From assembly GCF_001949145.1 (NCBI RefSeq), contig NW_019091360.1:4296159-4360158 (forward strand): a stretch of 64,000 nucleotides of DNA, given 5' to 3'. A program made the position numbers and the translations under genes. Each line of letters begins with the position of its first letter. The stretch's first letter is position 1. Below are positions 11,660 to 60,775 of the stretch, one piece after another. The notes under the pieces are model-generated. The model had not been told where the DNA came from, did not search any database, and saw only the letters and a program-made list of their open reading frames with translations. This DNA is from Acanthaster planci. Lineage: Eukaryota.

Positions 11660-12136
11660 TTACAATGTGAAGTCATCGTAATCTGCACCATCTCTCTTGC
11701 CAAAGAATAGACCGAAGCCATACTCATCATGTGCCCTCTTGCTTTGTTGATCAGCTCTGCCACTCTTCCTTTCATCATGATGTAGCCAAGTACCTCTTTT
11801 CCCCCAGAACATACCGTGACCGTAGTCGTCCACTTTGGACTGTCGTTGTTTGCGTAGGAACCCTTCATGATCGCCAGGGTTGTTTGGGTCTTGCAGAGCT
11901 AGCAGTAAATCCAGCACGGAACCCGAGTCCCTTGGCTTATCCAGTAACATTGACTTGGCCGATTCTGCCAGCTCTTTGGAACCCTGATTTGTCATAGCAT
12001 CGGAGGGGTCTAACCACGTGTTCAGTCGTTCCCGCCTGTCGTTGCCATCAGCTACGTCACGAAGAGGCAGGCACGCGATTGGCGAAAGCAAAAGGCACGT
12101 AACTGTTGCTATGGCAACACTAGGCCAATTATTCAT
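11660..12136 (-). CDS. CCK: Sulfakinin/cholecystokinin (SK/CCK)-type neuropeptide precursor, 158 aa, single coding exon
   Basis: ATG at 12136 begins a signal peptide (MNNWPSVAIATVTCLLLSPIAC). Two peptides with amidation/cleavage signals: RKQR-QSKVDDYGHGMFW-GKR (11795-11842) and KR-AHDEYGFGLFF-GKR (11693-11734), each with acidic residues before a sulfatable Tyr at position -7. Near-identical to starfish SK/CCK peptides (Asterias pQSKVDDYGHGLFWamide, GGDDQYGFGLFFamide, from memory). Splice acceptor TTTTCTTCTGCACTGCAG|GTCACA-ATG. Confidence 0.95.
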   Translation of the reverse strand: MNNWPSVAIATVTCLLLSPIACLPLRDVADGNDRRERLNTWLDPSDAMTNQGSKELAESAKSMLLDKPRDSGSVLDLLLALQDPNNPGDHEGFLRKQRQSKVDDYGHGMFWGKRGTWLHHDERKSGRADQQSKRAHDEYGFGLFFGKRDGADYDDFTL

Positions 12137-12142
12137 TGTGAC

Positions 12143-12163
12143 CTGCAGTGCAGAAGAAAAGAC
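12143..12163 (-). other. Splice acceptor of the 5'UTR intron of the SK/CCK gene
   Basis: Minus strand GTCTTTTCTTCTGCACTGCAG|GTCACAATG: polypyrimidine tract plus CAG, with the exon starting at 12142, 6 nt before the ATG. Confidence 0.8.
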
Positions 12164-17654: not shown

Positions 17655-17784
17655 CGTTGGCCAATCACAATGCGCAAAATCTGTTGACCCAATGCGAGTT
17701 TGGAAAGGGTCAACAGATTTCGCGCATTGTGATTGGCCAACGTGATGGAAACTCGTGGAGGCGCGATATTGTGAAATGCCCGTA
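17655..17784. mobile_element. Truncated second copy of the palindromic MITE at 4717-4888
   Basis: TGGCCAATCACAATGCGCAAAATCTGTTGACCCAATGCGAGTTTGGAAAGGGTCAACAGATTTCGCGCATTGTGATTGGCCAACG...TATTGTGAAATGCCCGTA matches the 4717 copy; the left terminus is missing. Confidence 0.8.
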
Positions 17785-30049: not shown

Positions 30050-33000
30050 TTAATAATGCGGTGAAAGTTCTGTTTTTCACAAGAATTTAGGAAAGATTTG
30101 TGTGTATTTCAGACGGGGTAAGATATTTTTGAGGATTTGTCTTTGTGTAACATATTTTCGACAGGTAAGGAGAAAATGTTCGACATTATCAACACATCCA
30201 CATATATCACAAAGATCATTTGGGTGTTTACCGATCTTATGAAAAACTGGTTAAGACCCTTGCATGTACCTAATCGTAACCGGTGTATGGCTACTTCCTC
30301 GGCACGATTCATTGTCCAGTTTGGGAACAAGTCAGAAGGAGACATCATTGTAAATATTATTGGTATGTTTTGGGATTGATTTTTCCAGTTATTTTGAAGT
30401 TTTACTTTAAGAGTGTGTTTAACTTAATTAATCGATAAAGGGATGGGAAGATCAATACTGTTTTTCTTGGTCGCGTTTTTAGCAATCTGATTAGCTTTTT
30501 CATTTCCTGGTATACCGCAGTGACCGGGGATCCATTCAAAGTGAAGAGTGTTCCCTTGATTGCCGATATTAATCGTGGTGTGGCGAGTATCACAAACAAT
30601 TTTATCTGCAGGGAAAGGTTTATCGATTGCCTGCAAAGCACTAAGACAATCACTAAAGATGCAACCTTGTAATGGTTTTGAGTCTTCAATCCATTCTAAT
30701 GCAAGAAGAATGGCAAACAATTCTGCAGAAAAAAATTGATATACCATCATTGATACGAAAGCCTTTAGAGTAATTTAATTGGGGAATGTTTATAGCGCAT
30801 CCAACAGTTTTGTTATCAAGGTCTTGAGAACCATCAGTACAGGCCTATATTTGTAAGTAGTTCCCCAGGTAGTGTTGTTAACGCCAATAGTAATATTTCT
30901 TTTTTCATAAGTATTGTCTGTATGAGCTACTTGGTTAAAAATGTCCGTAGAGAAATGAGCTTTTCTGTAACGCCAATAAGAAAAGATATTATTGAGGGGG
31001 AAGATGGTTGAAGGATAATGAATGATTCTCGCTTCGTAAGGTGTTTTATAACTGGAGTCAGACCATTTGTCCTCAAAATAGTGTTTTTGCCAATTATTAA
31101 GGTTAAAATGTTTATTTGGATGGTCCTGGTGGGCATTTAGTTTAATAGCATATAAGCTAGCTAAAAATTATCGTCGAAGAGCGAGTGGTGGTTCGCCACA
31201 TTGAATGTGTAGTTTAAAGAGGGGAGAGCCCTGAATCGCACCAGTGCATATTCTCAAAGCTTGATATTGGATACTATAAAGTTTTTGTTTAAGAGTAGTT
31301 GAGGCTGAATCAAAGGCTTCCCAACCATATTCTAGGATGGGTTTTATGAGGGCACAGTAAAGTTGGTAAAGAGATTGGCCATGTGCCCCCCAAGAGGTAC
31401 CATCAACGCATCTCAGAATATTCAGTCTTTTTTTGCACTTCATAATAATATCATCGATTTGTTGTTTCCTGGTGAGTTTACAATCCAAAGTAATACCAAG
31501 GAATTTGGCAGCAGATTTGGTCTGAATCTTAAGGTCTTGGATACGTAAAGAAATGTTACCATGAGTTTTGTTGGTAAAAAGGACAGCAACTGTTTTCGGG
31601 ACCGAGAGCTTAAAGCCCCATTTATCAATTTTTAATGTTATTCACATCCAGTTGAATTTTCCTTTCCAGACAGGAGATATTCCTATTTGATTTCCAAATT
31701 GCTATATCATTCGCATATTGAGTCATATTAGCATCAATTATATAATTCGAGAGATCATGTTGAAAATGATGACAAGGTATTCCCGTATTTGTCAGGTAAT
31801 CGTTTGATGACAGCATTACTGATGCCATCTTTACCAGGAGAGGTACAGTTACTGGAATTAATGGCGTGATTAAGTTCCTCTATTTCGAAAGGATCATTGA
31901 TAACACTATCGTTGTTTTCATTAAACTGGAAGGCCTCTTCAGTATCATTTTTAATGATGTTGAAAGGAGGATTGTAATTACGATTACTACTAACTGCAGC
32001 AAAGCTGCTAGCCATGGTGTCAGCCATTTCTTTGTCAGTAACCACATCAGTGTTGTTAAGGCAAAAGGTCGGGATGCTGTTGCTGTGGGTCTGGCCAATA
32101 CATTTGATTTTATTCTAGACTTTTTGGGTATTAGTTCTGGGGGTTATTTCTTTACAGAATCTCTCACAATCTTTTCTTTCAGCTTTATTTATGGTTTTCT
32201 TAGCAATAACACTAGCTCATTTTAAGCTATCAGGTCAGAAGGCAAGCATGTTTTCTTGAGGCTTTTCAAAGCTTGTCTTTTTTCAACTATGGCTTGTTTG
32301 CATTCTTCACTCCACCAAGATTTTGGGGGACTTGTGATGATTGAGGTGAGTTTTTAGGAATGGAATCATTCATGGCAGAAACAATTTGTTCGATAAATTT
32401 ATCATAGACTTCATTAATGGTATGGGAAGGGTTGGGTTCTGAGCTGTGCTTATTACATGCAGTTTTGAACATATTCCAATCGGCTTTTTTGAAGGACCAC
32501 TTCGGAATTGGATTGGCTAGATTTTGGTGAAAAGAATGGTCAATTTCCATGATAACAGGACAATGATCACTTCCCCATGTGTCATTTATAATTTTCCAGT
32601 TACATTTAGCAGCTAAATTTGGGGACATAAAGGTAATGTCTAGACAGGAGAAAGTGCCTTTGGGGATGTTAACTCTTATGCCCTCACCAGAGTTCATACA
32701 GACTTAAGTTTGTCTCGGCAGTAATGTCATCTATAATCTTGCCATTATGATCCAAAGAGGAACTTCCCCGGAGGGGGTTGTGTCCATGAAGGTCGCCACA
32801 ATCTATATTAGGAGTATCTGTTTTATGAAAAATCTCTATAAGGGAGCCATCAAGCTTGTTGCAAGGATTGTACACATTAATCAGTTTAATTTTTTTCCGG
32901 CACTCGGTGTAGAGTTCACCAACTTGGTATTTGATTTGGTTAACTGAGTGTGACAGGTGTCTAAAAGCTAAACTACGTTTGATGAAAATCGCACATCCTC

Positions 33001-34430
33001 TACCCCATTTTTCGGGGCTGTGTTTGTCCAGTCATTACGGAATATCATAGCCCGGTAAATTGGAAATTTTCCCTTCTTTGAGCCAGGTTTCCTGAATTAA
33101 GGTCAGGCTTGTGAGTCCAAGAGTTTATGGCATTTTAAAATTCGTTACCATGAGCTAAAAGAGATTGCGCATTCCATTGTAGAATAAGAATCATTAACAG
33201 ATAAATCATGAAGATGTGTTGATTGGTTTACCTTTTGGAGTGTTACTTCAGCTTGCCTCGTCATTAGTTGGATTCTTGTAGCTAACTCTACTCTTACGGC
33301 TTGAGCCACTTCGCTTTGTTCTGATTAGGACTCGGACTGTGAAGATTGACTTGGTTTCCATTGTTTGGATTTGGAAGCGTCCTCAAGGTGCTCAATGTGC
33401 TGGACCAGTTCCTTATCAGCTGAAAGTCTTTCTTTCTGGTTTTGTATGGTGTCCCATATTTGCATAGTACCAATGAGTAATTCAGTGAGCTATTGCTCGT
33501 TACAAATGCACTTAATGTGTTCAGTTTTTGTTCCCGTAGTTTCTTCTGTTTCAGTGCAAGCATCTTTGGAGTTGGCGATTTGCATGACAAGAGTCGACTA
33601 GTTGTTCTCCTCGTTAACATTTATACGATGAATAGAACTGTGCTCATTGACAGTATTAGCAGGTTTCGATGAGGGTGCTGATTGAGTGATGTTATCTGGT
33701 CGAATTGAGATATCAGTCTTAATGGCTTTTGCTGTGTCAGCATAAGAGATATTATATGTTACTCTGATTCCCTGAATTTTCTTGTCTTGTTTTACTCTAT
33801 TGCAGCCTGCGTAAGCAGATGAGTGTCTTTCAACGCATCTACAGCGCTTCACCTGATTCTTTCGGTTACATTATTCAAAGGTGTGGGGTCCCCCACATTC
33901 AACGCGTTAGAGTTTTCAATTTTCCTGCTTGTGCTGAGGTGTGACATTTAACAACCCTTTGGTTGTTTTTCGACACACTTTTAATGTAGGCTTTACTTTA
34001 TTAAGTGCCGCAGCGGTGCGTATTGGATTGACTTTAGATGATTTGATATCAGGAGAGTTAGTAACCAAAGTAGGTTGGGAAATGGAGGGTTGTTCTTCGG
34101 TGTATCGTCGCTTTGACGGAGTTTCACTACAGGGGTATCATAATCCGAGTCCGAATAAACATCACTGTAATTGAGTGGTTTCGGGCGTTTTCTATTCTGT
34201 CTTTGCGTTTGCGCATCATGCGTTTGAGAGTTATTTTGTGCTTGACTGATTAGAACATCTATGGTGGGTCGTGGTTGATTGTTTCCATGTTTTTCCTGGA
34301 CTTCCATTGGGGTTTGTTGAGATGCCGATTGGTTCCATGACGAATTATCAGATTCGGAGTCAGTTAATTCCCAGTCGGTGTTATTGGCCATGAGGCCAGA
34401 TTTAGCTCAGAAAGAGATGAAAAGCTCGAT
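30050..34430 (-). mobile_element. Decayed non-LTR retrotransposon (I-group LINE with ORF1, APE endonuclease, RT, RNase H, C-terminal CCHC)
   Basis: ORF1 remnants 33294-34391 with a knuckle-like CRCVERHSSAYAGC. ORF2 from ~33209: LQWNAQSL, LIQETWLK, GDLHGHNP, CLDITFMS, GSDHCPV (APE); SPGKDGI, QYANDIAIW (RT, YADD degenerate); TDGS, SAELFAILLALEWI, IFSDCLSALQAI, WIPGHCGIPGNEKAN (RNase H); CDICGCVDNVEHFLLTC. Many frameshifts and stops. Confidence 0.92.
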
Positions 34431-36750: not shown

Positions 36751-39700
36751 TTTTATTAATAATATCACAACAGAGAAATCTTGTTTCCCCTCCCAAAGGG
36801 ACCTCTGCATGCCAATGGGGAAAAAAACACTTAAAAATCCAAAAGTATTAAATTATTACATCAGAAGACGGAAAGGTCATGATATTTTCTGTATCTGTTA
36901 GATAACTGATAGACGAAGCAAATAGCCGGAGAGATCTGATGCAGAGGCTCTTTCTTCATCCGATCTCTGGTGTCCCACGGGGCAGTTTCTCCTGATCGTG
37001 ACAGAACACAGGGACATACACACATTACTCAATATGCCCCTAGGATTGGGGTCTTTAAATCCAAGCCGGCGTCAGTGCAGTAAAACGCAGCAAAGACTTT
37101 AAGCCACCTCTTTGAGATGATCGCGGAACCTTATTGCAGGATCGTTGTCACATCCTCGACGAACACGAACACCGGTCACAATCGCCTCTGGGGACGTTAG
37201 CCTCGACGTAGTTGAAAAGCCCAAAGACCTGTCGTCTTATCATTTGCTATTTAAATTCTCACGTGTGTTAGCACAGCCTAACTACATGTAGGGCCACATG
37301 GGCAAGTTATAAACACAAACATTGTCCGTTTTACTTGCAACCGGCATTCAATTACAATTCAAAATCATGTCCTTGTTTGATTTCGACTGTCGAGTGATTT
37401 TATTTGTGTACTTTTGGTCAACAACTTCCACTATGACGTTTTGATATCGGTATTTCGCAATAAAATTTTGAAAAAGAGTATCACGTCACAAGTTCAAAGA
37501 TTAGAAATTACAATAAGTATACATTGCAACTGAATAGCAACAAAGTTGAGTTAAATCAAATGATACAAAATACACTGACTGACAAAATTATGAGAATTTG
37601 TTTCAACTACCATGTGTAAAAACGTCTATGTAAAGAAATGTAAGTATAGATTGAATAAACTTTAAATGTGGGTATTTAGTGCATTTATAATTTGTGAAAG
37701 TTACTCAGGGATCTCCATTATAATCCCGAAAATTGATCAGTATAAATCTCTATCCATGTAAATATAAATGAATATATCCTCGGTCAGTATGATACGCATT
37801 TGTAGGGGTAGTAATCTAATTTTGCAAATCATATCTTTTCAGGTTGTGGATGCTTTAACTTCAGTTTTACACGAATACATCAACGTTATCACGCAGCGCA
37901 GAACTCTTTCGTTGTTGATTGAAACTGTGAAATTAATTGATTAACGAAACTCAGGTAAGCCCATTTGCGCTCAAAAGCTAATTTAACCCAAAGTTTCAGA
38001 TTTTGATTTTTAACATCTAATTTAAAACTACAGTATGGTTCATTTGCTTTCTTTGAGGTCCCAACATCAGATGATCTAAGCAATGTTATTTTACAGTTAT
38101 ACACCTCACTTAATTGACAGCACGATTTTAAACAGCGTTGTTTTATGTGCCAATAACAATTTATGCGAACATAGCACGAACACAGTCACGTGGTTTCTGA
38201 TATCAAGCACATTGCACTGGGTATAGTGCGTGTCCAAGTCTTGGGTGGAGAAGGCAATGACCGTCCATTGTTTTTCACCTAGAAAGGTTCCTAATGCTCT
38301 CCCTCCCCACTGGACATGCTACTGATTGGGAAGAATTCTAGTATTATTAAGAAAACCTTGATAAAACGACCTTACTCAACAGTTTTCAACTGCTAAATAA
38401 AGCACACACGTATAACTCTGCGCGTGTCATTAGTTTGAACATCGTTATCAATGAAATCAAATGTGTTTTCTTCACAAGCAGCTTTCTCAACTTTCTCTCT
38501 CTGTTTGCTTTATTCGGAGAAAATACACAAAACTGTTTTACTTTAAAAAGGAAGCCCCGAACGCTCGATACTTACACGTAAAATTAAAGATTTTTTAATG
38601 CTGAAGGACTATAAATCGGTAAATTGCTAAATTTATCTGCAGGCATAGGAACTGACCCGAGGATGTCTACTGCTTTGACTATAAAATATCCAATGAATAT
38701 ATTCACGTGAGTTCGATCCATGAAGTCAAGGTTTACTGTCATTCTTCCCTATTACTTTTACGATTAGAAAAAAACAACAGGAGCCCTCTAGGATAAACCT
38801 GGATGACCACACGTTATGCATTAAAGAAGAATGGAACATTCATAAAACGTTTTCTTCCCATAGTCTTCTTTTATTTTGTCAAATTTACAATGTCGGAAAA
38901 AAGTGTTAACAGCCATTGCATTGCTTTGATTAACATAATGTTAAGCGTTTTATGTAGTACATGTATTCATTAATGTTTATTTTACCATTTTAAAGAAATT
39001 TAGTAAACTATTCGAGAAGTTACCTTGTAGTTGATTTTATGTTTCTTCCATTAACTGTGCTTGATGTACCATTTCTGCATTTGAACAGATTTAGAATTGT
39101 TCATTCTTATAAAGTTATAGACTAATTCAAGCGTTTTGTTCACGTTTAATTGCATGAAGCCAAAAAAGACAAAATGCCCATTTTCAATTCCTTTTTTGTA
39201 TTTCATTATCAAATGGAGACATTTATTGACGTGTGTCTAGCTGTGAAGCTCTCACATAGTTATTTTGGCATCGACTTAATGACAAGTAAAATGAACGTGA
39301 AATAATCTTGAAAGCTGACTGCGCTCAAAGGCAGTCACGGGGGGGGTAAGTATTTGCTGTTCTGTTGGAAATCATTAAATCAGTCAAACGCCAATCTCTT
39401 AAGTAGAGGGCCCGGCATTGTTTCTACTCAAGTACCGCCCCATGTACTTCCATAATAATCATCATTAACAGTGCACTTGCAGAGAGGGTTTCACTAACTT
39501 CATTAGCAGAGTTTGTTGACTTTCATATTGTCGTCAGATAGTGCTAAGCGATATTTCATCTTCAAGCCCAGTCAGTTCTCGCATATCTCTTCGTGTCACC
39601 TTAAAAAGAACAGTACTGGGCAATAAAGTATTGAATGAATAAAAGACGGTATGAAATACTTGTTCAACCGGGAATGGATGCAGAAATCATTTTCTAAACA

Positions 39701-40513
39701 CGAAATCGGCTAACTTCATAAGCAACACGAGTTTCAACTGAAACAGGGCAAGAGGAAGGTAGTCGGGTTTCTTGAACCCAGGATGCTTACTTTAGGAGCA
39801 GTAACAAAGAGACCCACTCCAATAAACCGCCTCTTTTAACGTCAATAATTTGTGTCCAAAAGAAGGGGTACTCAGGACTCTACGAAGGAGCCTTTCTCTA
39901 CATCAGATCATTCCAAACCTCTACGCATCTTAGCTACTACATGGAATATTTCGGCCAACTCATTGCACTTGGGGCGTATTCTAGGTTATCTAAATAAGAA
40001 TAATGTCTCATAGAACGAAATGACGACTACGTCTTAGTGCGCTGCGATATGGCGTGTCAACAAGCCGCAGTCATAGCCATCAATAATTTTTGTCCTACAT
40101 CTATCAAGGTTCATTAAAGCAGTTGCGTTCAATATGTTCGCAAAAAAAAAGCTCACTGCTTGTCTTCGTTGTGTTTTGTATCGTCGGAACCAGTTGGCCT
40201 ATATACAGCAAGGAGACAGCACTGAAATAAATCCAGGAGAAAAATTGCGCAATTTTGGATTAAGGCATAGTGATTTTAGCGCGACTCTTAAAAATGAAAT
40301 AAACAACACGGAACACTTTGAGAATTAATGTCCACGTAACACATATCATTCTTTGGTGAATTCAGAAATTCATCTGATTATGGATGATACCATCAGAGTG
40401 AATTCTTCAGCCAGCTGTAATGTCACGATTCTATAGTCAGTCTATGCGGCAAGGCTGCAAGGAACAGTGTCGCATGTCGGGTAGGAAATAAGTACTTCAG
40501 TTTGTCTAGATCT

Positions 40514-40795
40514 TTACTCGTCTTCGAATGCGTAGTAACCAGGATCTTGAATCACCAACTCGCGATTTCCAAGCATCCTTTTACGGAAGAGAGTACCGCC
40601 AAAGTGGTAATCATGTTGCTCGGGTCTCCTGTTTAACGAGCTCAGCGGACGCCTTTTCCGCTGTGATTCTCGTTCAATCTCTGTGTCTAGGTTGTACTGT
40701 TGACGGAGATCGTCTAGTCTCGATGCATGTACCTGCTGACGGACTAGACACCAACAGCATAATATGGCGACCATAAAGACGGCCTTGGTTTCCAT
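40514..40795 (-). CDS. Putative neuropeptide precursor, 93 aa, divergent SK/CCK-like paralogue (DYHFGGTLF)
   Basis: Signal peptide METKAVFMVAILCCWCLVRQQVHA; acidic spacer; basic sites RKRR, RR and RKR flanking ...PEQHDYHFGGTLF; acidic Tyr-bearing tail DPGYYAFEDE. Splice acceptor TTCCTCCCTTATTACAG|AACATA-ATG lies 6 nt before the ATG, with A at -3. Secreted precursor status is well supported; family assignment is inference. Confidence 0.8.
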   Translation of the reverse strand: METKAVFMVAILCCWCLVRQQVHASRLDDLRQQYNLDTEIERESQRKRRPLSSLNRRPEQHDYHFGGTLFRKRMLGNRELVIQDPGYYAFEDE

Positions 40796-40970
40796 TATGT
40801 TCTGTAATAAGGGAGGAATTTCATTCTTGGTTACGTTTGTGGTCCATATTTTAAGTCTGTCAAGAGCACTCTTAGCCTTCCAATTTCAAAGTGATTAATT
40901 TTCAGTCATAACATACGGAAAGTTAACAATTAAAGACTACAAGAGATGTTAGACTAGTGATCAATATAAT

Positions 40971-41694
40971 GGGTCGTATGAATAAAACGTAGCATTTCCA
41001 TTTTACCACTATTTTTAAAGCATTTACTCGTGTTTGTATGAATAACAACGAAGCAAATGCTTTTACTTGAGTGCAGTTGCTTTTAAGTAAAAGTATTTAC
41101 TTTTTACTCTTTAAGCTTGTGCTGGACAATAAGCAGTTGCTTCATTTTGTATGAATAAAAATGAGTAAGTTCTACAGAATTGGAGTATTTACTTGACATG
41201 TTTCAAGACCGGGTCGGGACAAGCTTGAAAACGAGGAGCATTTACTAATGTTCAAAATGGCAGCGTTCATGAATGTCATTCGAAAGGAAAAACTGTATGC
41301 CTTTAGGAGGAAATCTCAAGAAACCAGATGCAGACAGTTGTACCGATTTGAGAGTGGCAGAGCAATTTTCTTCATCGAGGTTTTTGCGATCAAAATTACT
41401 GCCATCGTGCTTATCTGCCATGCTGAAGTCTCAAGATACAGCACCGTGCTGCACTGTGCATCTGTACATGCAGACAACGGAAGCCCTATTGTGCAAAACC
41501 ATCCGGCTGTGTAGTCAGCCACAAGCATAAAATATTTGCTAATATTTATACTAGTACATACTGATTAGTAAAAAAAACATTTTACTCCTACAAATTCAAG
41601 CATTTGCTTGTTCTTAATGGTTTGACTTCTCAGTAAATGCTTCTAGTGTTTGCTTGAACTTCATAGCATTTGCCAGTTTATATCCATACGACCC
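40971..41694 (+). mobile_element. PIF/Harbinger-like deletion derivative in the intron upstream of the second precursor exon
   Basis: TIR GGGTCGTATGAATAAAAC ... GTTTATATCCATACGACCC. Internal translation MAAFMNVIRKEKLYAFR...CRQLYRFESGRAI loosely resembles a Harbinger transposase N-terminus. Confidence 0.6.
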
Positions 41695-44600
41695 AGTGAC
41701 TGGCATATCGAGAAAGTTAACAAAAAAATTAACAATGAATTAAAAAAGAAACAAATGCCATCCCCTATGAAAAAAACAAAACAGACTCAGTTTCAACAAA
41801 ATGGATAGCCCATCTAACCATTTTTCTTTTTCAATTTCTCGAACAGCGACTTCAACGTTAAGTTACGTTTACCTTTTTCTAAACATTGTAGTGTCTTGTT
41901 CAAGCCTAAAGCCCAGTGCACTCGTACACAGTTTATCTTTCCACAATAAATTGTGGGATCTGGAGTAATTTGTACATGTGGATTTTTGTACAAACATTTC
42001 AATGAACATTATAAACATTGGTTACAGTTTGTGTAAGTAATCTAGCAAAGTCCAACCTAAAACAAATACATTTATTTATCATCATTTAGTAATCAGCAAA
42101 TCTTACACTTTCTTGGAAATTTCACCCCTTGGTGCAATTCGGTAGTTACAGCGAAGAATAGATAGCTCTCCTGTACGAACAAAAATGATAATAAATAATT
42201 GGAACTTGATATCGGCAAGGTTAGAGACACGAAACACCATGTCCAATAAATTACAGGTTTAAATTAGGATTCTCATTTTGGAGACATGTTTATAATCGGC
42301 CGCTGTTGTATAGATATCAGTGCAAGGGGAGAGCTTTAACAACGCCTTCCAACAGTTAGCACCCTCCTTTGGGTATTGTATAAATGTTGATGATGACCCT
42401 ACTTTCAACTTATATCACCGCTACGACGTCGTTTGTAATGAAACACAACGATTTAGTTCTTCAAAGGCTGTGCAGTATGGTCAAGCCGTGAACATTGAAG
42501 TATGTCTGTTTATTCTTTAACATGATTTGGACTATGATGAATTACAGCCGCCTGATTGTTGTTTTAGTCTCGAAATTTAAACGTTTTTAACAACAGCTTT
42601 CGTGATTGAGTAGACAAATGTTGAATTGATGCTGTGGTTATAGAATAGGTGGCTTCCTGGCTACTTTCGCCCATACCTACGTCTGTTCATGATGGATGGG
42701 TCAAATTAAGCTGAATAAATAATGAGCTGTTCCTCTTAACAAATTTGTGTTTAATAATTTAACATTTTAGCATAAACCAACGTGTCATACATCTCACAGA
42801 CTGCACGATCCAGCGCAATTAGTGGACTAGGAGCCCCGTGTGTGTGATTTGGGAAGCATGTCTAACTTGTGGTATTTCAGTCTTAGAATTTCCGACCCAT
42901 TAGAGAAGGGAATTACCTGATAACTATGTTTGTACTTACTCCAGTCAGCTTGTAGTGATTGCAAATGGTCCTTTAGAACGAAATCCGGAAAAAAATAATT
43001 CTGAAATAAGAGAATATCAAAAGCAAAGCTCACTGACTAACAATTTAAAATGTTCAAATTAATATGACGAATGATTGATGGTACCAATCCCAAACAGCCA
43101 AACGATTTCCTTACAGAACAACTGAGTTCATTTCGTAAAAACAAATTTGCTTCTAGAAAAATGCTTGCACTTTTCCTCGTTTCAGGTTCGATTTCTCGGC
43201 ATTTATAACACCTCACTGAGTTTTATAAAACTGTTCAAAGCACTTAATGGCAACTGATTTTGCTCTGGATTATTGGTTCAATCATAGAAAATCCAAGTTG
43301 AGATTTTTATGGAGACCGATGTGAAATATCTCGACAATGTGAGGGCGTGAGATGGCCACAGTTCATCCTACATACTTCTCTACATTGGTCTTCTAGAGTT
43401 GCTTGAACTATTGCTCACTGATTTATTACAAGTTCCCTTACCCCATGAATCCTTAATTGGGAAGTAACGAAAGATCTCCTATTATGACATTTCTTTGCGT
43501 GTGTGTGGATGTGTGAGTGATACGGGCGATTTGAACGATTCTTCACGTTCTTGCTCATCTATACAATAAATAAATGATTTTTTTCTAAACGCCAAATGAA
43601 TATGGTTCCAGCGGACAGTGGACCTCCCTTGCAATTCATTAGAAAGATTAGAATGTCGCTGTCAGTTTGGTTTAGGTGTTTATGTTAACTGGAAATTGCC
43701 ATTTGGTAAGGGAGGGATTGTGTAAACATGGCAAAGGCGGGGGATCAGTTTACTGGATGAAGAAATATTAAGCATGCTTTTCTCTTACCTGTAACAGAGA
43801 TCGTAATCTTCAAATTATCATAAAATGAGATTGAAATACCAAGGCAAAATGCCCAAATAAAATAGATTCCGATCTTTCCTGCGTCACAACAGTAGTAAAC
43901 AACACGAAGCATTTGGAATTGTAAGGACGAGGATAACAATGTCTGCTGTATAGTTTTTGGTAACAAAGCAAAAAAGTTACGCCCTGTTCTTGAATAACTA
44001 GAATTGTTTCGTAATTAATGAATTATATGCATCTTATGTACTGCATTTTATGGTTCAAAGCCCCAACAAGGAATGACTCCCAATCAAGTTTCCTCCTTCT
44101 TACTTTGATCAAAGACCAATCTCCGTGATGCTCATTAATTTACAACATTTTTATTTCGCGATTATGGTGACACGAAGTAAAATTAAATCAGGATATGATT
44201 CCCATTACAGGGAAGTGCGTAAATTTGATTTACCCCAAATATGCTACAGTATGCAAAATCTGCTAAGCTAAACTGGCTTCAAGTTGAACAGAATGTTTAA
44301 TTTGACTATAGAAGAATTGTACATGTATTTGTCATAAATTGGTAATTGATTACCATACCAAGGTCCAGCAGGAAAAGAAGTTCGCTTCATTTCTCTTTCA
44401 AAGACCACACCCTATCAACGTGTGGTTGTCAAAGGTCTGTTTATCAAAGAAACATGTAGGAACTCTTCGTTTTTCAAAGTATAATTTAGTTTCAGTTGGA
44501 AGAAGGCGAAGGCGTGGTGTTTAATATTGAGTTTTATGGATCAGTTTGACTTTGCTGACAATAAAGAGTGCAGTGACGCCCAAGAAAGTGAGTAGGACAC

Positions 44601-47600
44601 TCAAACCTCGATGTTCCAGATATTGATGTCTGTTCTCAATGATGTTTCTAATCCCAAAATTAGTGTGGTGGTAAGTCAGCTCAATCTAGTTCTTTTAGCA
44701 AATCATTTGATCTGTTTATTTATTTAGAAGAAATTTACCTCCTTTGGTTAACTTTCCGTTACTCCCATTTTCGTCGTATAAACAACAATAAGCCGACAAG
44801 ATTTGCATTAATCAGTGCCGTAACTCTGTCGGCCCCCGATGAAACCAGCAAGGCACTTAGTGTTTTTAACGGCAGCGCACATATCTGCCCCGTTCGCTCA
44901 AACCTCATCGTTAAAAAGGGGCTGCACTCCGGAAACTTTGGAGTGGTGATCCTATGACGCACTTGAACAATTCAGGTGAATTTCAGCGAATTCTTGAACT
45001 GCTATAATACGACCAGCGCTGACATCGACCGTTCATCTTGTCACTTGATAGGAGTGATACACTCATCAGACACTGGTCTAAATGGATCGTATGTCCACAA
45101 TTCAGGTAGTTTTCACCTGGCGACAACCGCCCTGAGTCAATTAAAAATGCGGCAGAAAAAGGACCGTACCTCTTCATTCTATACCGTGGAGTATAATTAA
45201 CGTCTACTCGAGAGTCCTTGGGAATTCATTGTTATCCTGTTAGGAAGAAGTTAGTTTTTTACGTTACCTGGTCTAATCCAATTCTGTGTTTTTTCGCCTA
45301 AAATGTAACTATATTTTGTAACTACATTTTAGGCGAAAATGTAGTTGCATTGTAAACGAATGAAATCCTAACAAAACTACATATGCTAGGCAAGATGTAA
45401 CTCGATTATGATGTACATGTAGTCGTACTGTTGAGGTAAGCGTGTGTTTGTAAAAGATTATTATTGTTGGGGGGTGATGAAATCGTGCATATTAAGTGTA
45501 TAACGGTGTGTTAAAGTCAGCTTGTTTGTGCGCATCCAACCCCAACTTTTTAAAACTAAATTGTGTCAACTAAAGCTTTGCATTTGTGTTCTTTCAAAAG
45601 GTGCCACTAGCTGTATATTTGTATTCTTTATCTACATCGCTGTCAGAACTCTCTCCGTGCCTCTGAGGTGGCAGAAACCGACTGGCATAGCCGAAATGTG
45701 CTTTGAATTCCCACTTATTTTGTCCCACAAGACTTTTTGTGTATACATTTTATCATTTTGACCGAACCTGCGGAAGGACGAAATACCTGCGAATGCTGTA
45801 ATTCACCTTATCCTTGATCACAATAACGCGTTAGGTACCTGAATCAATTGTCTTGGATAGCGTTTTGTGAGTTCGTTACTCCGATCATGGATTGCATTCA
45901 GATGAAATATTTTGAAGAAGGACGCATGTGCAGGCTGGGAATCGGAAGATGGTCGTGCCAGCGAGATTGTCCTGCTTTATATTGTTACTGTTTTGCTGAC
46001 AGGATACGAATGTATGGACAGTTTCTCTTCACGGCCTGTAATTCTCTTCACACTGTCATTAATTATCATGTTTGCCGTCAGACAGTGGCTGAGATTTTCA
46101 TTTTTTTATTCATTGGATTTTTCCCACTCAGTTTAGTAACTTTATTTGTTCTTTATCACTTAAACTAAAGGTCATTTGTTAAAATAACGTTTAAGTTTTT
46201 ATGCCTCATCCATTCGAATTTTTTGAAATGTTTTTCTTTTAACCACATAAATTTACGGTTGAAACTATAATTCTGCCCGTATCAACCTGATAGGCTTTTT
46301 ATGCGTCTGAAAACTGAAGTTTTCATGATTTGTTCAGCTGTTTATGTTGGTGTAGTCATGAGATGCGATGTTATTAGACCACTCGTCCCACGGACAAGCA
46401 GTCTGCTGAACAAGAGCGCTGGAGTTAGAGGATGAGTGCTGTTATATGCTCGTTTTGGTTTGAATTTAACATGACAATGAAACCATAATAACCTGTTAAC
46501 AAACTTTGTACATCTGACTACCATGCATTACGTCTGTAGGCCTACCAAGCACTTTGAAAATTTAAGTTTTTCATTGGAAATTGCAAATGATACCGAACTC
46601 TGTTCACACGGTAAAACTGTTGATGTCTAGCTGTCAACGAGAAATTCTCAAACTGTGTCTTAAAAAAATTAAGATAAATCAAAACTTGGTTTAATACGAA
46701 TATGATAATTTTAGGCAATGGTTGAATTGAAGGAGGCCAATCAACCCAATTTTTGTCGATTTAGCAGTAAATAACTATAAATATGTGCCTTTTAAAAAGA
46801 ACTTGCCAAACGTTTTTTTAAATGGAATTTCGAGTTTGTCGTTGTCAACGTGGTTTTGTAGTGCTTTAGTCAGGGACATAAGAGGATCTAATCTCGACTC
46901 ATTCAACTCTCTATAGAATTATTACAAATCGATCCATTTCCAAGCAACACACTTACAGGCCCCTATGCCTTAAATTCTACTCATCCGTTATGTCATTACA
47001 TTCGTTCCTCGTATGACTAATAACTAAATATTTTACCAAATATTTCAAAGCAGACCATGTATAAACTAATGCAGGCATCTCCTAACACAGCCTGGGGCAA
47101 CAGATGTTATCTGTACATTATCCTATCAAAAAATCATATCACGTCAAAAATCCTGTCATGTACGTCACTCTGCATTACATTAGAAATCCAAATATCTCAT
47201 GAAACCGCGACTAGTTTGAAGTAACGAATTATTGACAAATTGAATCTAAAACGAGGGTTTTTTAATTTGTTTTCAGAAGCCGATCTTTTTGTCTTAAAAC
47301 TAATCATACAACTGATTATACAATAATAGAAGAGAGGGTTTCCTATACATAACTGTACCTGATTCGTTTCCATTTTTCATTCGTTAATTTTAGGCAAGAG
47401 TCATCCATTCAATTGTCCAAGTGGTCTACACGATTTGTTCTCTCATAGGCCGGAGAAAATATTCCCCAGTTGACGAAGTAACCAGGTTGAAGTTTCCATC
47501 TCACTCTTGATGGTTTAGTAAGAGCATAATTGGAACCACATGAAAAGCATGAATTTTAAAAATAAGTGCAGAAAAATTGCTTTCGGCCTAAATACAATAG

Positions 47601-47775
47601 AATAGTGCTTGCTGCTTTCGACACTGTCGCACATTTCTGACATTTGACAGACATTTGAAGTTGACAAGAATGTATTTTTTAAATATTTGTTCAATATGAT
47701 TCCCTCAAAAGTGAAATGTCTTTGAAATCAAGCGATCAAATCTGCCACAAAAGCATAAAGGTGAAACAGTTGTCA

Positions 47776-47980
47776 CTTTACCTTGAATAAACGGCTGCCG
47801 TCTGATTACCAGGTACTAATCTCCTTGTGTCGATCACTACCTTCTGTGTGCTGTTCAAATAAGTCCAGCCCGTTATATCTATAGCCTATGACGCCTACTG
47901 CCTCAAAGCCATTAACCAATCACAGCCTTCCGTTCCTTTGGTTCTTTATTTTACCTATCACCGGAACTGTACTGACGTGA
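47776..47980 (-). promoter_or_regulatory. Candidate first non-coding exon (~47782-47850) and core promoter of the second precursor gene
   Basis: Minus-strand donor CAAG|GTAAAG (exon end 47782); TATA-like CTATAGATATAA (47873-47884); TGACGC 47889-47894; TTAACCAAT 47912-47920; TGACGTGA 47973-47980. Confidence 0.45.
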
Positions 47981-49517
47981 GGCTCATCAATAACGAATGG
48001 GCAGGGGTGATTTTTTGTTGATTGTGTGTTGAGAGACGGTTGTTTTGCGAGCTGTTAATGGTCCACACAGTGTCAAGACATCCACATACATGAAAAATAC
48101 CTTCATTACACATCTCCAAGCAGTGTGTAACCCTGTGGGTGGGAGTGTCCCACGACTAGTGTCTGGATTATGATAATCACGAAAACAACGCTCACTTGAC
48201 GTTGACATCAAAATTGATTACATCGTTTTGCTTTTGATATATAATCTTGGAGTTTAATGCATGCATTTTGTCGCGTAATTACGTTGCAGGTTAATCATTC
48301 ATAAAGAGTAGATTAGTTCTTCGTCAAACTGTCATTTCTTCGCAGACCTGGCCAAATTAACACGTATTGCACACAACTTGAAGACCCAATTAAATACCGG
48401 TGGCTACAAGAGTTATGCTGGTCGGATCTTTTGCCTAAGCACCATGGATGAGTCGTAAAATAAGTAGAAGAAAATAATGGTAAACTCTAAATAGTGACGT
48501 TTTATACCATTTATCTTTCCTTGGGGTTTTCGTTAATTGGCGTACTTTAATTCAGTTTCCGTTCATACTGTATGATTTTACTTGGATGTCTAGCTATTTA
48601 AAGTCCTCTGCATGTATTAGGTGTAATTTAATAGAACTCTGTATCTTATTATACCTTGCAGCAATTTTATCAACAAGCTGAGTAAGCCTACAGACGATCT
48701 GTTCGGTTATAACAACCTAGTCCGGTCTCAAGAAAGGGTTTCTGTTGAAACCTACTATCGAAATTGACAGAGAAGCTCACACCCTTTCTAGTTTTGCTCA
48801 TTGCAGATTTCGTCTTTTCACGAAATAAGTGGAAAATATTTCCTATTTGTTTTTCAATAAATCTTAAATTTCCATGTTCATGTCAAGAGGGTTCTACATT
48901 TCATTGCTTAGAAATGAATAATGCTTATCTAAGACCTGTATAACCAGATTGATTGATCTTAGAATATCACTGAGTAACTTGACCCAATTCTATGCCTAAA
49001 GTTATTCGCCAAAGATCAAAGACCACCCAAGGCTGGCGTTATTTACCACAGGCAACAATCGGTGGTCACCAAGGGTAGCTGTCGCTGTACAGTAGGGACA
49101 GTTGCCCTCCGGCCAGACTGTCCGATCAAGGCGCGATCGGTTCTAGGGAATGACCCTGCGGAGTACAAAGTCCTCCCTCTACAGTTCCGTAATCCACACT
49201 TGTCCTCCGGAATTTCCGAATCCCAACTTCGAGACAGTCTGACGCAAGATATTGAATTATAGGCCTAAAAACCTTAACTGGCATAAATCCTGCTATATTC
49301 CCATTGTGGATCACGGTCAATAGTATGTTGATATTCAAGCCATTAGTTCACCCACATGCAGTTTTGTTTTCTGTTCCCTTAGCTTGGTATAATCGTCATT
49401 TCCGAAGGCGGATTGTTAACAAGTCGACTCCTACCATCCCCGCCTATTTGACCTGATGTTTGGTACCTTGCAAGCAGTGGCTTATACTGCAGTTTGTCAA
49501 TAAATTTATTTGCATCC

Positions 49518-49604
49518 TTGGGTAGACATCTACCCAATCATCATAGATTCAATACAAGTGCATAATTAAATATCAAAATTATACACTTGTATTGAATCTA
49601 TGAT
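49518..49604. repeat. Adjacent near-perfect palindromes/hairpins
   Basis: TTGGGTAGA-CA-TCTACCCAA (49518-49537), then ATCATAGATTCAATACAAGTGCATAATT-loop-AATTATACACTTGTATTGAATCTATGAT (49540-49604; 28-bp arms, 1 mismatch). Confidence 0.85.
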
Positions 49605-52600
49605 TTCGGTCTGTTTTATGTATGAAACCGAGGGTATAGGAAAACTGGGTTAATACTTCTAAAATAAGTGAATGTGAATTCTCATTTGGAGCAAGTTTTA
49701 TGTTAAGCCTTTGAAAATATTGGTAAAGTTGCAGTGTATCTGCATGAAAATCCATGCAGATACGGATTGCAGTGGAAGATTTCTGACCATTCTTATCTAT
49801 TTCAAAAGAGCTGTAGATGCATCATCAACGATAGCGATGCCATTTCACTTATGGCTGATGTACAAGCTTTAATTTCAATTTAAGATTAGAAAAACTACTT
49901 CGAAGTGAACTGATTGGATTGGCAATAGTGCTATTTGAACGAAGTTATACTCACTGCACCTGTGAGAAATGAAATTTACACTTTTCTCAGATCCCGAAAA
50001 CAGTTTCTTATTGAGAGTCCAAGATACGCTGAAGTCCACAATGCGATTCAGTGGTGAGCCTATGACGCGAATAGCCTGTTGTCCGTGTTAAGTAATCGCA
50101 AATTAGTCTAGAAATAACCCACTTCATGTGAATGTCCTTCTACAGACTTTTGGGGATTTTATAAATTGATTAGTACCGTAGAATGATTCTCAATTTGCTT
50201 TTGCCTGCACTGTAGTTAACAAGGCTTGTTTCAGTGCATTTACACCTCCTCCCATAGTTTACCCGCTCCTACTACATCTAGCTTGGTCCCTCTGCTTGAG
50301 TAGATATTCAGAGTAAGGGCAACTGACACGTTTGGCCGAAGGAAAATTTATGTTTACCCATGTTGCTTGAAAATTGCCATGACACTTATTCCGTTGATCG
50401 CTGTAATATTTCATTGCAGTGTTTTGAATCATATTCGCCATTCTTATGCCCTGAGTTTACAAATAGCCAGAAAAATCCATTATAAAAGTCTTGTACCTCA
50501 AATGAACTGTTTGTATTTTGTGTTTCAGTATTTTTCAAGTTTCTATACAGGCAATGGGTTTCCCCTGTTCCCTCCACAAGAAGCATTATAAGTTTTCCTT
50601 TATTCAAAGTCTTCACGGAATTCCAAGACATTTTACCCTCGGTCTTGAACTGGAAGGAAGAGGCAGGTGGTTGATACTAGAGTTCATTGATTACATGCTG
50701 TCAAAGCATCGATTGGGGGCAGATGCTCTTTCCCAACGATGGTAACATCCACGCCTAATACACCCCTAACAGTTCCTCCCACGTGTCTTATGGATTGGAA
50801 ATCTTATAATACTGTCGGTATGGGCCAACATCAACGCTTTATAGTCTTCTTCTTTGATAACACTTTTATCGTCACCTTCAACGACGTTGGAGAGCTTTAT
50901 TTTCATGGGTTGAAGAGCTAGAGGGAATCGGAGGGCTTTGATATGAATTTCGATGAAGTTACATAAATCCCTTCAACGTGAGAAAACGCACGAACTTACA
51001 TGTATGTTCTGTAGAGTATTGTATCGGAATTCCCATTAAAACACCTCGAAGGCAAAAAGTATTATAAGTCTTTCTACATGAAAAAACTTCCAACAAAAGC
51101 AACTAAACTATCATGGAAATCAATGACTCATGAAAAATCCCGCAAAGAGAATGACCAGAAATGGAACCGTCAGCGCAAAGGTATAATTATGAAATCAACA
51201 AATAAACACAACAGAGCCAATTTCCTTTCCCTGAAATAATCTCACTTTTCTGGTGTTGATATTTTGAAATACTGTATCCACTTGTTACGTTTCCAGTGAA
51301 TACTACATACTGCGGGAATAACTCCAGGTACAATGTTTCGAGTGTAAAGGAGAAATTTAATGTAATTCCTTTTCTCTCCCTTTTGGTGTTTTTTGTAGTT
51401 TACCCGGTGAAAATTCCATTAATGTCTATGAATAATGAATTGGATTTCAAATATTGAGATTTATTGTCAAGTAAAACAGCGCAACGTACCCCTGTCAAAA
51501 TGTCGATAATTCAATATATTACTGTCGTCATTATATATTTATCAAATGATTGAACATGCGCAAAAATATGGACAAATTCGTGACAAGGAATGAGGATTGA
51601 ATCTTAAGTCAGCTAGGCCTGAACACATGTGCCAGAAATAATCGGATTTGTGCTAAACGGCACTCAATTTGCAGGCGCATGGCTGACACGATTTGACCGA
51701 ATCCTTCGTACGTTTCCTTGTATACATCTCTCGTTTATCATCTCAGTATTTTTGTCTGTAGGCAAGTGAATTTTCCTGCCAACGAAGCATGTGACTCGGG
51801 GAATTTGAAATAAATTTCAGTGAGATGAATGCATCCAGTAAAGACGTAACGTCTGTAGCCGCAGGCCGCACACATTGACAAAATAGTCGTCGGAAGACCA
51901 TTGACGTCATAAGGTTATCAACATAAGGCCTCCAATACCGAGACTGGTGAATTAATCAAAACCAAACTAAATGAACGACAAAGGAACAGACTCGGTCCAC
52001 TCACAATTAACAAAGGACTAATACAATGGCGAAACGAGGGAGACCTTGGAGGAAATGGCGTTTTGTTTGATGCCTCTGGCCCCTTTCAGATAATTTGAAA
52101 CTAGGGCTAAATTCATACATCTCAGGAAATTTTGTATCGCATCTACCGGCGTGAAGAAGAGACATGCGAATTTGTAGTGTAAACTTCATAATTAAAAGAT
52201 TATTCAATCTGAAAATTTGTGAACAGCTCTAAACAAAAAGGCACAGTGGTTTTGCAGTTTGCCCGTGACCTTTTGGTTGAAGGAAGTTCAACTTACGAAA
52301 CGTTCTCCACACCAACCAAATTGTAGACGGGGCATAAACAAGGCCTAGAAAAAAGGATAGTAGTTGAACGGTAATAATCCAATGAAGACATTGACTATGC
52401 TCGGACAGAGTTCGAGAAGCGAGACTTGAGATTGATCGAAGTCCTTCGGTGTCAAGTTTCCAGGATTCAGCCCTGAAATCACTCTATTCCTCGCCAGTTC
52501 TCACTTGATTGACAGACCAATTCTACGTCATCTTAACCTCACTAGACTGCATTTGAACTTGGAGTATTTGAGAGCGAGTGTGTGACCGAGACATTTGCAA

Positions 52601-55320
52601 TGAAGTGTCAGACTCCTTTCAGAGAACTGACTATTCTAAGGGAAAGATAGAGTGGTGGGGCGGATTGGATGGTGCAGTTGGGAGATGTAGAGGGATCATT
52701 TTAAAGAGGGTTGGTTTATGAGGACAAGGTTTGGGGAGTACGAGAATGGAAAGCGGGTTTCGACAGTTTTCTTGTCATGTTATGTCAAATCATATTACCT
52801 CTCTGGCTATACCTTCGAGTTCCAATAAAGTAAATTTTGACTTTTCGGCGACAGCCTGTCATGCGAAATCATTCAATGTCCTTTGTAATCTGAAAAGAAT
52901 CTGTCAATTTTCCTAATTTATTTTCCTAATTAAAGACAGTTTTATGTTTGATCTATCTGCACAGCATGCGAATGTCGTGTACGGAAAACTCAAATGAAAA
53001 CCGAGCATGAACATTTGTTCTAGCGTTCGCTGATGGACGACGCGTCGTACGTGACATTCGTGACAACTGCAGGAACGTCGGAGACCCTACCTGTATCTTA
53101 AGCTTCAAATGAACGCATTCGACGTTGAATGAACGTTGGGCGTGCCTAGATTTGCTCATCGGGGTGCCGTTGGGCCAATACATCATAAATTGGGCCACCA
53201 TTGGATTTCGGTTGTAACATATTTTACCACTGGGAAATGCTGTTTGTTGGCTAAAGCTTAGGACACACTGTCAGGATTTTGGCAACGATACCGTCCGATT
53301 AACCATGGACGTGTTATGTTTATGGTGATGAGTCGGAAAGTACAGGACCAATAATCCGTAATAATCTTACGGATATTGACGGTTAATCTACCGGAGTAAA
53401 AACTTTCGTAAATAAGCCTTTCCCGACCTAAAGGATCAGCAAATGTTCTTCTAGATTCTCACAGATTCCGTAAAGTAATGTCTACGATTTGCTGCGCTTC
53501 ACAAAGTCTTTATAAATCAGGAGCCATCGAGGTCAAAATTGTGACAGTGTGACTTGGGCTTGATATATGGTATGTTTATGTTTATACATGTATTTGAGAA
53601 ATTGGGCCAGCATTGGCTATGTGTTATAACGCAAGTAGCATACTTTTGGGTCCAAACTGTCCGAATACTGGCTTTTGCCTACTTTACAATGGTGCTTCAA
53701 TTCGGCCCATCAGTAGCCAACTCAACAGTACCACATATAACCACATATAATTTAATTTAAGTTTGGTCACCTTACATTTGTTAAATCTCCGTCTCTCTAA
53801 GTCTTGACGAACATTTGCATATTCCTTGATCTTGCTCCTCATTTGGTGGGCCTTGGGTATTAAGCTGACGTCAAAACTTTAATAAGGGTTGAAATTGGTA
53901 GATCAGTAAATTAAAAGAATACACCATTTGAGATCATGATGGCTGAACATCTTCAAAAATAACTATTTTAAACTCGATACGCTCGAGTTTCTAATCTTTT
54001 TTAACGCTCTGTCCTTAAACAGACACAGATGTGAACAAAGTAGGTTAGGTGTATTTCAAAAGTAACAAGTAGCCTTCAAGTCCTTGATATTTAGAAGACT
54101 TACACCATGTGTGGAACTTGACCAAATTAATAACAGCTGTTTGGTATTTGATCTAAAAACCACGCATTGGGTCTTATCGTCACTGACTACACGCCCCCCC
54201 AACCAGCTTCAGGAATCACTGAAAAGAAAGGCAATTGAGGCGAAAAATTAAATTGTAGCCTGCTTTGTTGGAGAGGTAATTACCCAGGATACTCCCCTCC
54301 AGTATGGATTTTTAGTGAAGATGAAAATGAGGCGTCAGTTATTGGGATATGAGAAAACACATAGTACGGTGTTTATTTCTCAACCATAATTATGTTGTCA
54401 TTAAAGTCTAAAGTTGTCATTATATATACAATGATTCTCAGTGGAAAGTGGGCCTGTTACTTATTAACTTTGTGGAATTCTCTAATCTCAAAGTAATTAA
54501 CGATGCAATGATATGAACGCAGTGAACTCTTATTCAAAGAGGATGTTCTGACCAACTGAGCGTTTTAATGACATTCATTTCGAACAGGACAAAATATCAG
54601 GTCTTTTTTCACGTGCATTGATATTTGATAGAGTAAATTCTAGTAAAAGTACAAGGATGTACCCCATAACCTACATTATATAGAATGCAAAAACATACCA
54701 ATGCCAAAAGAAGGTGCCATTGAAATTATTGGCAACTTTGAAATAAAGTTTTCAGAAAAGTGAACCTTAGATACTGCTGCCTGCTTCGGGGAAAATGACT
54801 GATTTAGATGGTATAATTTTCATATTTTCTGCAATCTTACTTTCAGTAATCCGGGGGGCGGATGAGAGATATATATCCTCCTAATTATTACGGGGGGTGG
54901 GCTATTGACTCGTCCTCACCCCCAACTTTTTTGTGGTGAGCAAAAAAAATTACTTACGAATACATTCAGTATCGCTTATATTGTGCCCCACCTCGCTTTT
55001 CATATTTTCATGTCACCCCCCACCTTTCCGCATCGCCATCCACCCAATTACTGGTACAAATTTACACCACTGGACCTACGTAATAGGGTTCCTACAAACT
55101 GCTCCTTTAGACAAGTGCCGGACAGTTACATGAACAAATGTGACGGCGAATCTGCAGTCTCAAGACGCTTTTAGACAAGAATTTGGGTTTGTTGGCTTCG
55201 TAGTCAACCAACGAATCCTTTTCACGAACATATACACAGCACTCAATGTGTTGCGCCTCTTCGGGCAAAACCCCTAAAATCTACGAATAAAACAAACGGA
55301 ATGTATCATCAAAGGTCTGA

Positions 55321-55326
55321 TTTATT
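55321..55326 (-). promoter_or_regulatory. Candidate polyadenylation signal of the S8 protease gene
   Basis: TTTATT on + strand about 265 nt downstream of the stop codon. Confidence 0.4.
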
Positions 55327-55589
55327 GTCAGTGGTCATTAAGGATAATCCATAGGTTTAAACTGATTGTTTTGACCGACTGTATACTACTTTCTTTTCTT
55401 TTTAAATTACTTTCTCAGCTTCAATGCAGAGAGACAATTTGACTTCCTTCTATCCAATGATAATCATTATCGAGACCTATATTGGAAATCATCACAAGGG
55501 ATCATTTTAAAGTTAATTTCCCATCAATGTTAGTGTGTATTCTTGAAACACTCCTTGTGAATTAGTGTGTTGCTAAAGGAGGTCATTCT

Positions 55590-55732
55590 CTACACTACAT
55601 AGAGCAACAGGTTAGGGGAGCCCCCTGGGAGAGGTTCTTGGAGGACATTTGGAGTGGCATTGCTGAGAAGTTTGGCTTTCACTTGATCGTGGTTCAAATC
55701 CTTCTGCGTTGATAGCAATATAGCAACTGCAC
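55590..55732 (-). CDS. S8 protease last coding exon
   Basis: (G)AVAILLSTQKDLNHDQVKAKLLSNATPNVLQEPLPGGSPNLLLYVV*; acceptor TGGTACAG. Confidence 0.9.
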
Positions 55733-60679: not shown

Positions 60680-60775
60680 NNNNNNNNNNNNNNNNNNNNN
60701 NNNNNNNNNNNNNNNNNNNNNNNNNNNNNNNNNNNNNNNNNNNNNNNNNNNNNNNNNNNNNNNNNNNNNNNNNNN
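60680..60775. other. Assembly gap (96 N)
   Basis: Run of N characters. Confidence 1.

Follow-up and report, generated by a model that had tools for sequence, protein, structure and literature searches.

SK/CCK-type signalling in starfish stops feeding and retracts the stomach, and one SK/CCK receptor has been described in Asterias rubens; for this receptor, ArSK/CCKR, peptides that are both sulfated and amidated are active at 0.12–0.25 nM, and the unsulfated peptide at 48 μM (PMC8428848). For insect sulfakinins, amide and sulfate are both stated to be critical for activity (PMC8921109). The same 2022 review gives one SK precursor gene for invertebrates except spiders, and the SK/CCK papers of 2021 and 2026, in the parts available to us, treat one starfish precursor (PMC8428848, PMC13548532). 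Among echinoderms, the Trp that ends the first peptide of that precursor is described as unique to starfish (Tinoco et al., 2021, PMC8428848). Echinoderm SK/CCK genes have a single coding exon (PMC13548532), and the Gly after Tyr (DYG) is described as lost in some taxa, making it a common feature, not a universal one (PMC8428848).

A second type of precursor with a single peptide, CCK-type precursor 2 (CCKP2), has been described in brittle stars and in S. purpuratus (Zandawala, 2017, PMC5627052). The same authors did not detect it in P. miniata, of which a preliminary assembly was used, and suggested that Asteroidea may have lost it (10.1101/129783, PMC5627052). We found no receptor data for brittle-star CCKP2 in the literature. 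The name calls for caution: the sea-cucumber 'AjCCKP2' (PMC6586643) is the protein later called AjKPP2 and placed in the kisspeptin type (PMC9400282), and 'CCKP2' labels have therefore been unreliable before. Brittle-star CCK2 is distinct from the tachykinin/KPP2-type protein of the same species set (PMC5627052 Figure S2). Here we analyse a locus in a 64,000-nucleotide stretch of Acanthaster planci DNA (the window), for which a preliminary description had proposed a second SK/CCK-like precursor gene.

Results

A transcribed and spliced gene with one coding exon

The gene is real, transcribed and spliced, and consists of four exons, the last of which is the sole coding exon (Table 1). Four RNA sets were aligned to window positions 37000–56400, namely X21 and X24, which are raw reads from two studies, and X16 and X17, which are contigs presumed to be RNA; none of the runs listed in the run search was recorded as RNA, and expression was judged from the read alignments. 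Three introns, each CT..AC on the plus strand and thus GT-AG on the minus strand, are present in both X21 and X24. Joint 40801/42107 is crossed by 9 reads in X21, 6 reads in X24 and contigs of X16 and X17; joint 42170/42940 by 10 and 11 reads, respectively; and joint 43000/47782 by 7 and 14 reads, together with an X17 contig. A single X17 contig of 2516 nt covers all four exons and ends at 38442. In a fifth run, X18, a loose end at 40801 continues as exon 3 sequence, and the genomic-type contig X5 reads straight through this position. The spliced transcript whose absence was to refute the preliminary proposal is thus present, and the splice acceptor and start codon predicted from the genomic letters are those of the mRNA: the acceptor AG, which sits 6 nt ahead of the ATG, is used in the reads, and the ATG (nt 186) is the first of the joined mRNA, with an in-frame TGA upstream. 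The resulting 93-residue protein, P0001, is the longest of three open reading frames of at least 40 residues in the joined mRNA. Poly(A) hexamers (AATAAA) occur in the 3′ UTR at 39227, 38981, 38875 and 38514.

Table 1. Features of the P0001 gene and of the neighbouring SK/CCK precursor gene in the window.
Feature	Position	Strand	Basis or remark
P0001 precursor ORF, complete CDS within one exon	40514..40795	-	ORF translation; first ATG of spliced mRNA
5′ UTR exon 1	47782..47835	-	43000/47782 joint; 5′ end is a contig end, not a mapped start
5′ UTR exon 2	42940..43000	-	Joints on both sides; border set at GT-AG reading
5′ UTR exon 3	42107..42170	-	Joints 42169(+1)/42939 and 40801/42107; X18 loose end
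Exon 4: 6 nt of 5′ UTR, CDS and ~2 kb of 3′ UTR	38442..40801	-	X17 contig
Predicted signal peptide, residues 1–24	40724..40795	-	Hydropathy and (-3,-1) rule only
RKRR site, residues 46–49, followed by Pro50	40649..40660	-	Cleavage predicted after Lys47-Arg48
RKR site, residues 71–73	40577..40585	-	Occupies the place of the SK/CCK GKR
Predicted 22-residue free-acid peptide, residues 49–70	40586..40651	-	Processing inferred
SK/CCK precursor 1 (P0002), 158 aa, two amidatable peptides	11660..12136	-	Likely tandem paralogue

An overlapping open reading frame of 82 residues on the plus strand (40528–40776) was rejected as a shadow because the minus strand is the one on which every intron has GT-AG borders. 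No coding variants were listed across eight aligned runs, against about 12 in the 3′ UTR; this absence was not counted as evidence because the reading frame is too short and the variant listing is possibly incomplete. The run labelled 'organism E' yielded 166 nt of identical sequence; it is no diverged relative and was unusable for dN/dS.

A CRE-like TCACGTCA lies ~140 nt upstream of exon 1 (47973–47980); another CGTCA (47893) and a CCAAT in inverted orientation (47920) are nearby. CRE-like elements are frequent in neuropeptide promoters. An intronic repeat at 41100–41450 attracts mismatched RNA reads from other copies. Elsewhere in the window, the minus strand carries an expressed, spliced subtilase (Peptidase S8-like) at 54500–58050, with a joint at 55730/56090 in X21 and X24 and weak Pfam S8 matches. 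Imperfect palindromes at 4714–4891, 7768–7970, 17655–17786 and 62092–62157, some of them interrelated, resemble small inverted-repeat elements, and an assembly gap of 96 N occupies 60680–60775.

Precursor layout and predicted peptide

Translation bore out the architecture put forward for the reading frame, with a predicted signal peptide, an acidic spacer, multibasic sites and an RKR-bounded peptide. Hydropathy reaches its maximum (3.1, nine-residue window) at residues 6–14 within a hydrophobic stretch spanning residues 5–14, and the (-3,-1) cleavage rule is satisfied after Ala24. The spacer leads to the RKRR site, an inner dibasic site (RR) lies at residues 56–57, and the RKR site follows the peptide; this is the layout of a secreted precursor. 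The 22-residue peptide would have a calculated mass of 2626.3 Da, or 2706.3 Da when sulfated.

The C-terminal part of the peptide reads D-Y-H-F-G-G-T-L-F and is followed directly by RKR. Tyr63 is a candidate sulfation site with two acidic residues within five positions (Asp at -1 and Glu at -4), and the seven residues from D62-Y63 to the C-terminal end fall inside the published range of 5–7. The Tyr position and preceding acidic residue of SK/CCK peptides are therefore present, as is a C-terminal aromatic residue (Phe70), and each is kept in the homologue P0003 (see below). Two other family features are absent from both sequences: the residue after Tyr is His (DYH) where DYG would have Gly, and the Gly that donates the amide is missing, with F-RKR in P0001 and P0003 versus W/F-GKR in P0002, the neighbouring SK/CCK precursor. 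The codon for Arg71 in P0001, CGT, is a single base away from a Gly codon.

A pattern requiring an ATG-initiated reading frame of at least 60 residues, a hydrophobic N-terminus and (D/E)Y-x4-6-(F/W)-G?-dibasic matched twice in the window, at the P0001 and P0002 genes, and once in 200 shuffled windows, which is a loose control because the pattern was composed after both genes had been seen.

A single homologue

A HMMER search over 1.84 billion representatives gave two matches, one of which, P0003, is a true homologue: a protein of 89 residues from an ENA contig with 58% identity to P0001 (E 4e-25). The other, P0004 (27%), an acaloleptin-like repeat protein of a beetle, was attributed to chance. 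A profile of P0001 and P0003 recovered only P0003 (1 of 71 candidates), a word-based search with P0001 gave no match, and the annotated proteins of Patiria and Asterias yielded none at E values up to 0.001. Neither P0001 nor P0003 gave a result in the ESM Atlas, and Pfam holds no family for P0001 or P0002; a sub-threshold zf_UBZ match of P0003 was rejected, as were the 9 of 175 metagenomic stretches that passed a DNA scan through short matches to hydrophobic residues 5–37 (E 3e-4–6e-4). The exact P0001 protein is missing from a collection of ~15 billion sequences in which P0002 is present; P0001 therefore appears unannotated, which would explain why the gene has been overlooked.

The two sequences agree at 14/24 positions of the signal peptide, 11/21 of the spacer, 13/21 of peptide residues 50–70 and 4/20 of the tail, and at all seven basic-site residues (RKRR 4/4, RKR 3/3). 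Common to both are RKRR-PLSSL, DYHF, the final Phe and an RKR that lacks a preceding Gly, so the loss of the amide donor is not private to this genome. P0003 lacks the inner RR-P, which reads RG-P, and the GG, with DYHF-AAG-IF at the C-terminus. The preliminary description had raised the possibility that cleavage after KR releases a longer form; this has become the more likely outcome, since P0003 keeps the outer sites but not the inner RR, and the 22-residue peptide is favoured. The DYxFGGxxF motif, whose conservation had been named as decisive, is only half kept. Conservation of the peptide also hardly exceeds that of the signal peptide or the spacer, which counts against a strong role. SK/CCK1 peptides, unlike the peptide of P0001 and P0003, are almost invariant in all five aligned sequences.

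Linkage to the SK/CCK1 gene

The neighbouring gene was correctly described as encoding DYGHGMFW and EYGFGLFF. Its product, P0002, shares 75% identity with a protein of Patiria miniata and clusters near relatives of the Asterias rubens 'cholecystokinin-type precursor'. The Patiria miniata SK/CCK1 sequence (P0005) stands under both LOC119740447 and LOC119740413, as a recent duplicate or an assembly artefact.

The P0001 gene lies 28 kb from the SK/CCK1 gene on the same strand, and the one element recognised in the intervening DNA is a non-LTR retrotransposon, decayed and in pieces that match endonuclease and RNase H (30400–34400, minus strand). In both genes an AG is placed exactly 6 nt before the ATG, as predicted from the genomic letters for SK/CCK1; a short distance of this kind may be common in such genes. 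The predicted SK/CCK1 acceptor falls at 12137–12150, and the 5′ UTR exons of that gene may lie between the two genes. At the protein level, P0001 and SK/CCK1 have no significant similarity (BLASTP E 0.40; hhalign 0.1% probability), and over the 16 residues before DY, P0001 shares 0–2 with SK/CCK1 peptides in 12 of 12 comparisons drawn from six proteins. The proposal of a divergent SK/CCK paralogue thus stands in that the gene is expressed, linked and likely a tandem paralogue of the adjoining SK/CCK1 gene, and does not stand as far as significant similarity to SK/CCK1 is concerned.

Resemblance to brittle-star CCKP2

The second precursor of brittle stars is the best lead to the relationships of P0001, a good lead rather than a computed test. 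CCKP2s of three brittle-star species are of ~100 residues with one peptide (PMC5627052), and P0001 (93 residues) and P0003 (89 residues) are of similar length, likewise with a single CCK-like peptide. Compared by eye, residues 46–66 of P0001 match one brittle-star CCKP2 at 10 of 21 ungapped positions (R, K, R, L, S, L, D, Y, F and G). In the 16-residue stretch preceding DY, P0001 shares 5, 6 and 2 residues with the three CCKP2s (6 for the last with one gap), again by eye. The binomial tail for 5–6 identities in 16 is ~0.0002–0.01, a value to be read in light of a post hoc comparison in which frequent residues (R, K, L, S) make up half of the matches. Inspection by eye of the 43 O. victoriae precursors shown in PMC5627052 Figure S2 revealed D-Y-x-F in CCK2 only.

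Discussion

We favour, with some reserve, the reading that P0001 is the asteroid CCKP2 orthologue with a working, non-amidated peptide that is likely a weak agonist or a non-agonist at the SK/CCK receptor. The orthology, which we grade as likely, is judged by eye and from two sequences. P0001 is not filed as a canonical SK/CCK peptide because it lacks the donor of the amide, a defining feature of SK/CCK peptides and of published CCKP2 alike.

The linkage admits another origin, in which P0001 arose independently, and in asteroids only, by tandem duplication of SK/CCK1, retaining one peptide and losing its amidation, and CCKP2 was truly lost in starfish. Tight linkage on the same strand and the equal acceptor-to-ATG distance agree with this, and the HD-EY-GF of SK/CCK1 peptide 2 resembles the HD-YHF of P0001. 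Outside the core, however, the similarity to SK/CCK1 is not significant (0–2/16 upstream), while brittle-star CCKP2 matches at 5–6/16 and has the same size and layout by eye, and we regard such a duplicate as unlikely. Slightly less unlikely, in our view, is an unrelated neuropeptide (kisspeptin-2- or SALMFamide-like, pedal-peptide-like or of a new asteroid family) in which DY and the genomic position arose by chance and which acts on another GPCR. The G-T-L-F end of P0001 and the G-I-F end of P0003 resemble those of KP2 peptides (PMC9400282), PLSS recalls the DPLSS/DPLSA of non-amidated pedal peptides (PMC5656890, PMC5627052), and amide and Pfam family are both missing. Yet the KP2, SALMFamide and pedal precursors described are longer and carry at least two peptides (PMC9400282, PMC5627052), KP2 and the SALMFamides are amidated (PMC9400282), and neither the linkage to SK/CCK1 nor the retention of DY, but not of GG, in P0003 fits a chance resemblance.

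Two further readings concern function. P0001 could be a relic of CCKP2 that is still transcribed and translated, its amide lost and its peptide with little or no function, as might be suspected from that loss and the variable C-terminal residues, from the lack of a match in annotated Patiria and Asterias proteins, and from an identity of 58% to its homologue where SK/CCK1 shares 60–75% with its four relatives. The reading frame, signal and both cleavage sites are nevertheless intact in two sequences ~40% apart, the tail has diverged while the peptide has not, and several RNA sets contain the spliced transcript; we consider decay of this kind improbable. Least credible of all is that the peptide acts on the SK/CCK receptor as a second full agonist. 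The spacing from DY lies within the known range (PMC8428848), and holothurian SK/CCK peptides with one extra residue are nanomolar agonists (PMC13548532), but the characterised echinoderm SK/CCK agonists in those two papers are amidated, the amide is critical for insect SK (PMC8921109), and P0001 and P0003 have no Gly to donate it. The suggestion that the peptide is a second ligand for SK/CCK receptors accordingly seems doubtful, given the missing amide donor, the change of DYG to DYH and a C-terminus that varies where that of SK/CCK1 is near-invariant.

The predicted signal peptide would direct P0001 to the secretory pathway of peptidergic cells, where prohormone convertases would cut after Lys47-Arg48, because Pro50 would block cutting after Arg49, and leave an Arg-Pro N-terminus. 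Such an N-terminus occurs in substance P. A cut at the RKR site and trimming by carboxypeptidase E would then expose Phe70, Tyr63 would be sulfated, and the C-terminus would stay a free acid because PAM cannot amidate without Gly. The rules applied to cut sites, the Pro block, trimming and amidation are those that hold for convertases and prohormones in general. The sulfated Tyr might let the peptide bind the single SK/CCK receptor while the absence of the amide would make for poor activation, and the peptide could damp or tune the action of SK/CCK1 on feeding muscles; second in likelihood would be a separate receptor that reads the conserved N-terminal L-x-S-L segment. Weak or no agonism is expected from the way in which ArSK/CCKR responds to sulfated, amidated and to unsulfated peptides, and from the stated importance of both amide and sulfate in insects; a literature search on CCK free-acid pharmacology found nothing. 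We tentatively propose, as possible rather than probable, that the starfish CCKP2 product, sulfated and non-amidated, acts at the SK/CCK satiety receptor as an antagonist or a biased ligand, or else is the ligand of a separate orphan GPCR.

P0001 likely answers a stated question, the loss of CCKP2 in starfish, which had been left for more species (10.1101/129783, PMC5627052); the linkage to SK/CCK1 would provide genomic support for CCKP2 as a true CCK paralogue, the first that we found. For the SK/CCK family it is unusual that two sequences have lost the amide. A modulator of SK/CCK signalling would matter for starfish feeding biology because SK/CCK halts feeding and retracts the stomach; a signal of this family without an amide would, if the reading holds, be encoded beside the gene for the agonist and might offer a means of promoting feeding in a starfish that is a predator. 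We found no published description of the gene in a literature search whose coverage did not extend to the unnamed precursors ApNp28-31 of the A. planci neuropeptidome (Smith et al., 2017); we think it unlikely that P0001 is one of them.

Comparison with described precursors

Three described precursor types come closest to P0001. ArKPP2 and AjKPP2 (Escudero Castelan et al., 2022, PMC9400282), which earlier bore tachykinin- or CCK-like names, share with it a single coding exon, a C-terminal Gly-X-(X)-Phe and an aromatic core residue, but KPP2 precursors are much longer, yield two amidated peptides and have no DY-x-F in that description; P0001, with one peptide and no amide donor, does not have this layout. 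SK/CCK precursor 1 (ArSK/CCKP, PMC8428848; here P0002) has the (D/E)Y core and the aromatic end, and is further like P0001 in its single coding exon, its acceptor 6 nt before the ATG and its tandem position; it differs in its two amidated peptides, its 158-residue precursor and the near-invariance of its peptides.

CCKP2 (OvCCKP2 and SpCCKP2, PMC5627052), compared by eye in its brittle-star form, resembles P0001 in that its single peptide follows an Arg-rich site and lies in the C-terminal half. Brittle-star CCKP2 and P0001 also have, by eye, L-x-S-L equally far before D-Y-x-F-G, a final Phe and a tail of 20–24 residues. P0001 departs from CCKP2 in having F-RKR for F-GKR, so that of the Tyr and F-amide of CCKP2 the Tyr and Phe are present and the amide donor is absent, and further in having His for Gly after Tyr, an extra residue before the final Phe and no Lys immediately ahead of the DY core. 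P0001 is likely a gene of the CCKP2 lineage with a changed product.
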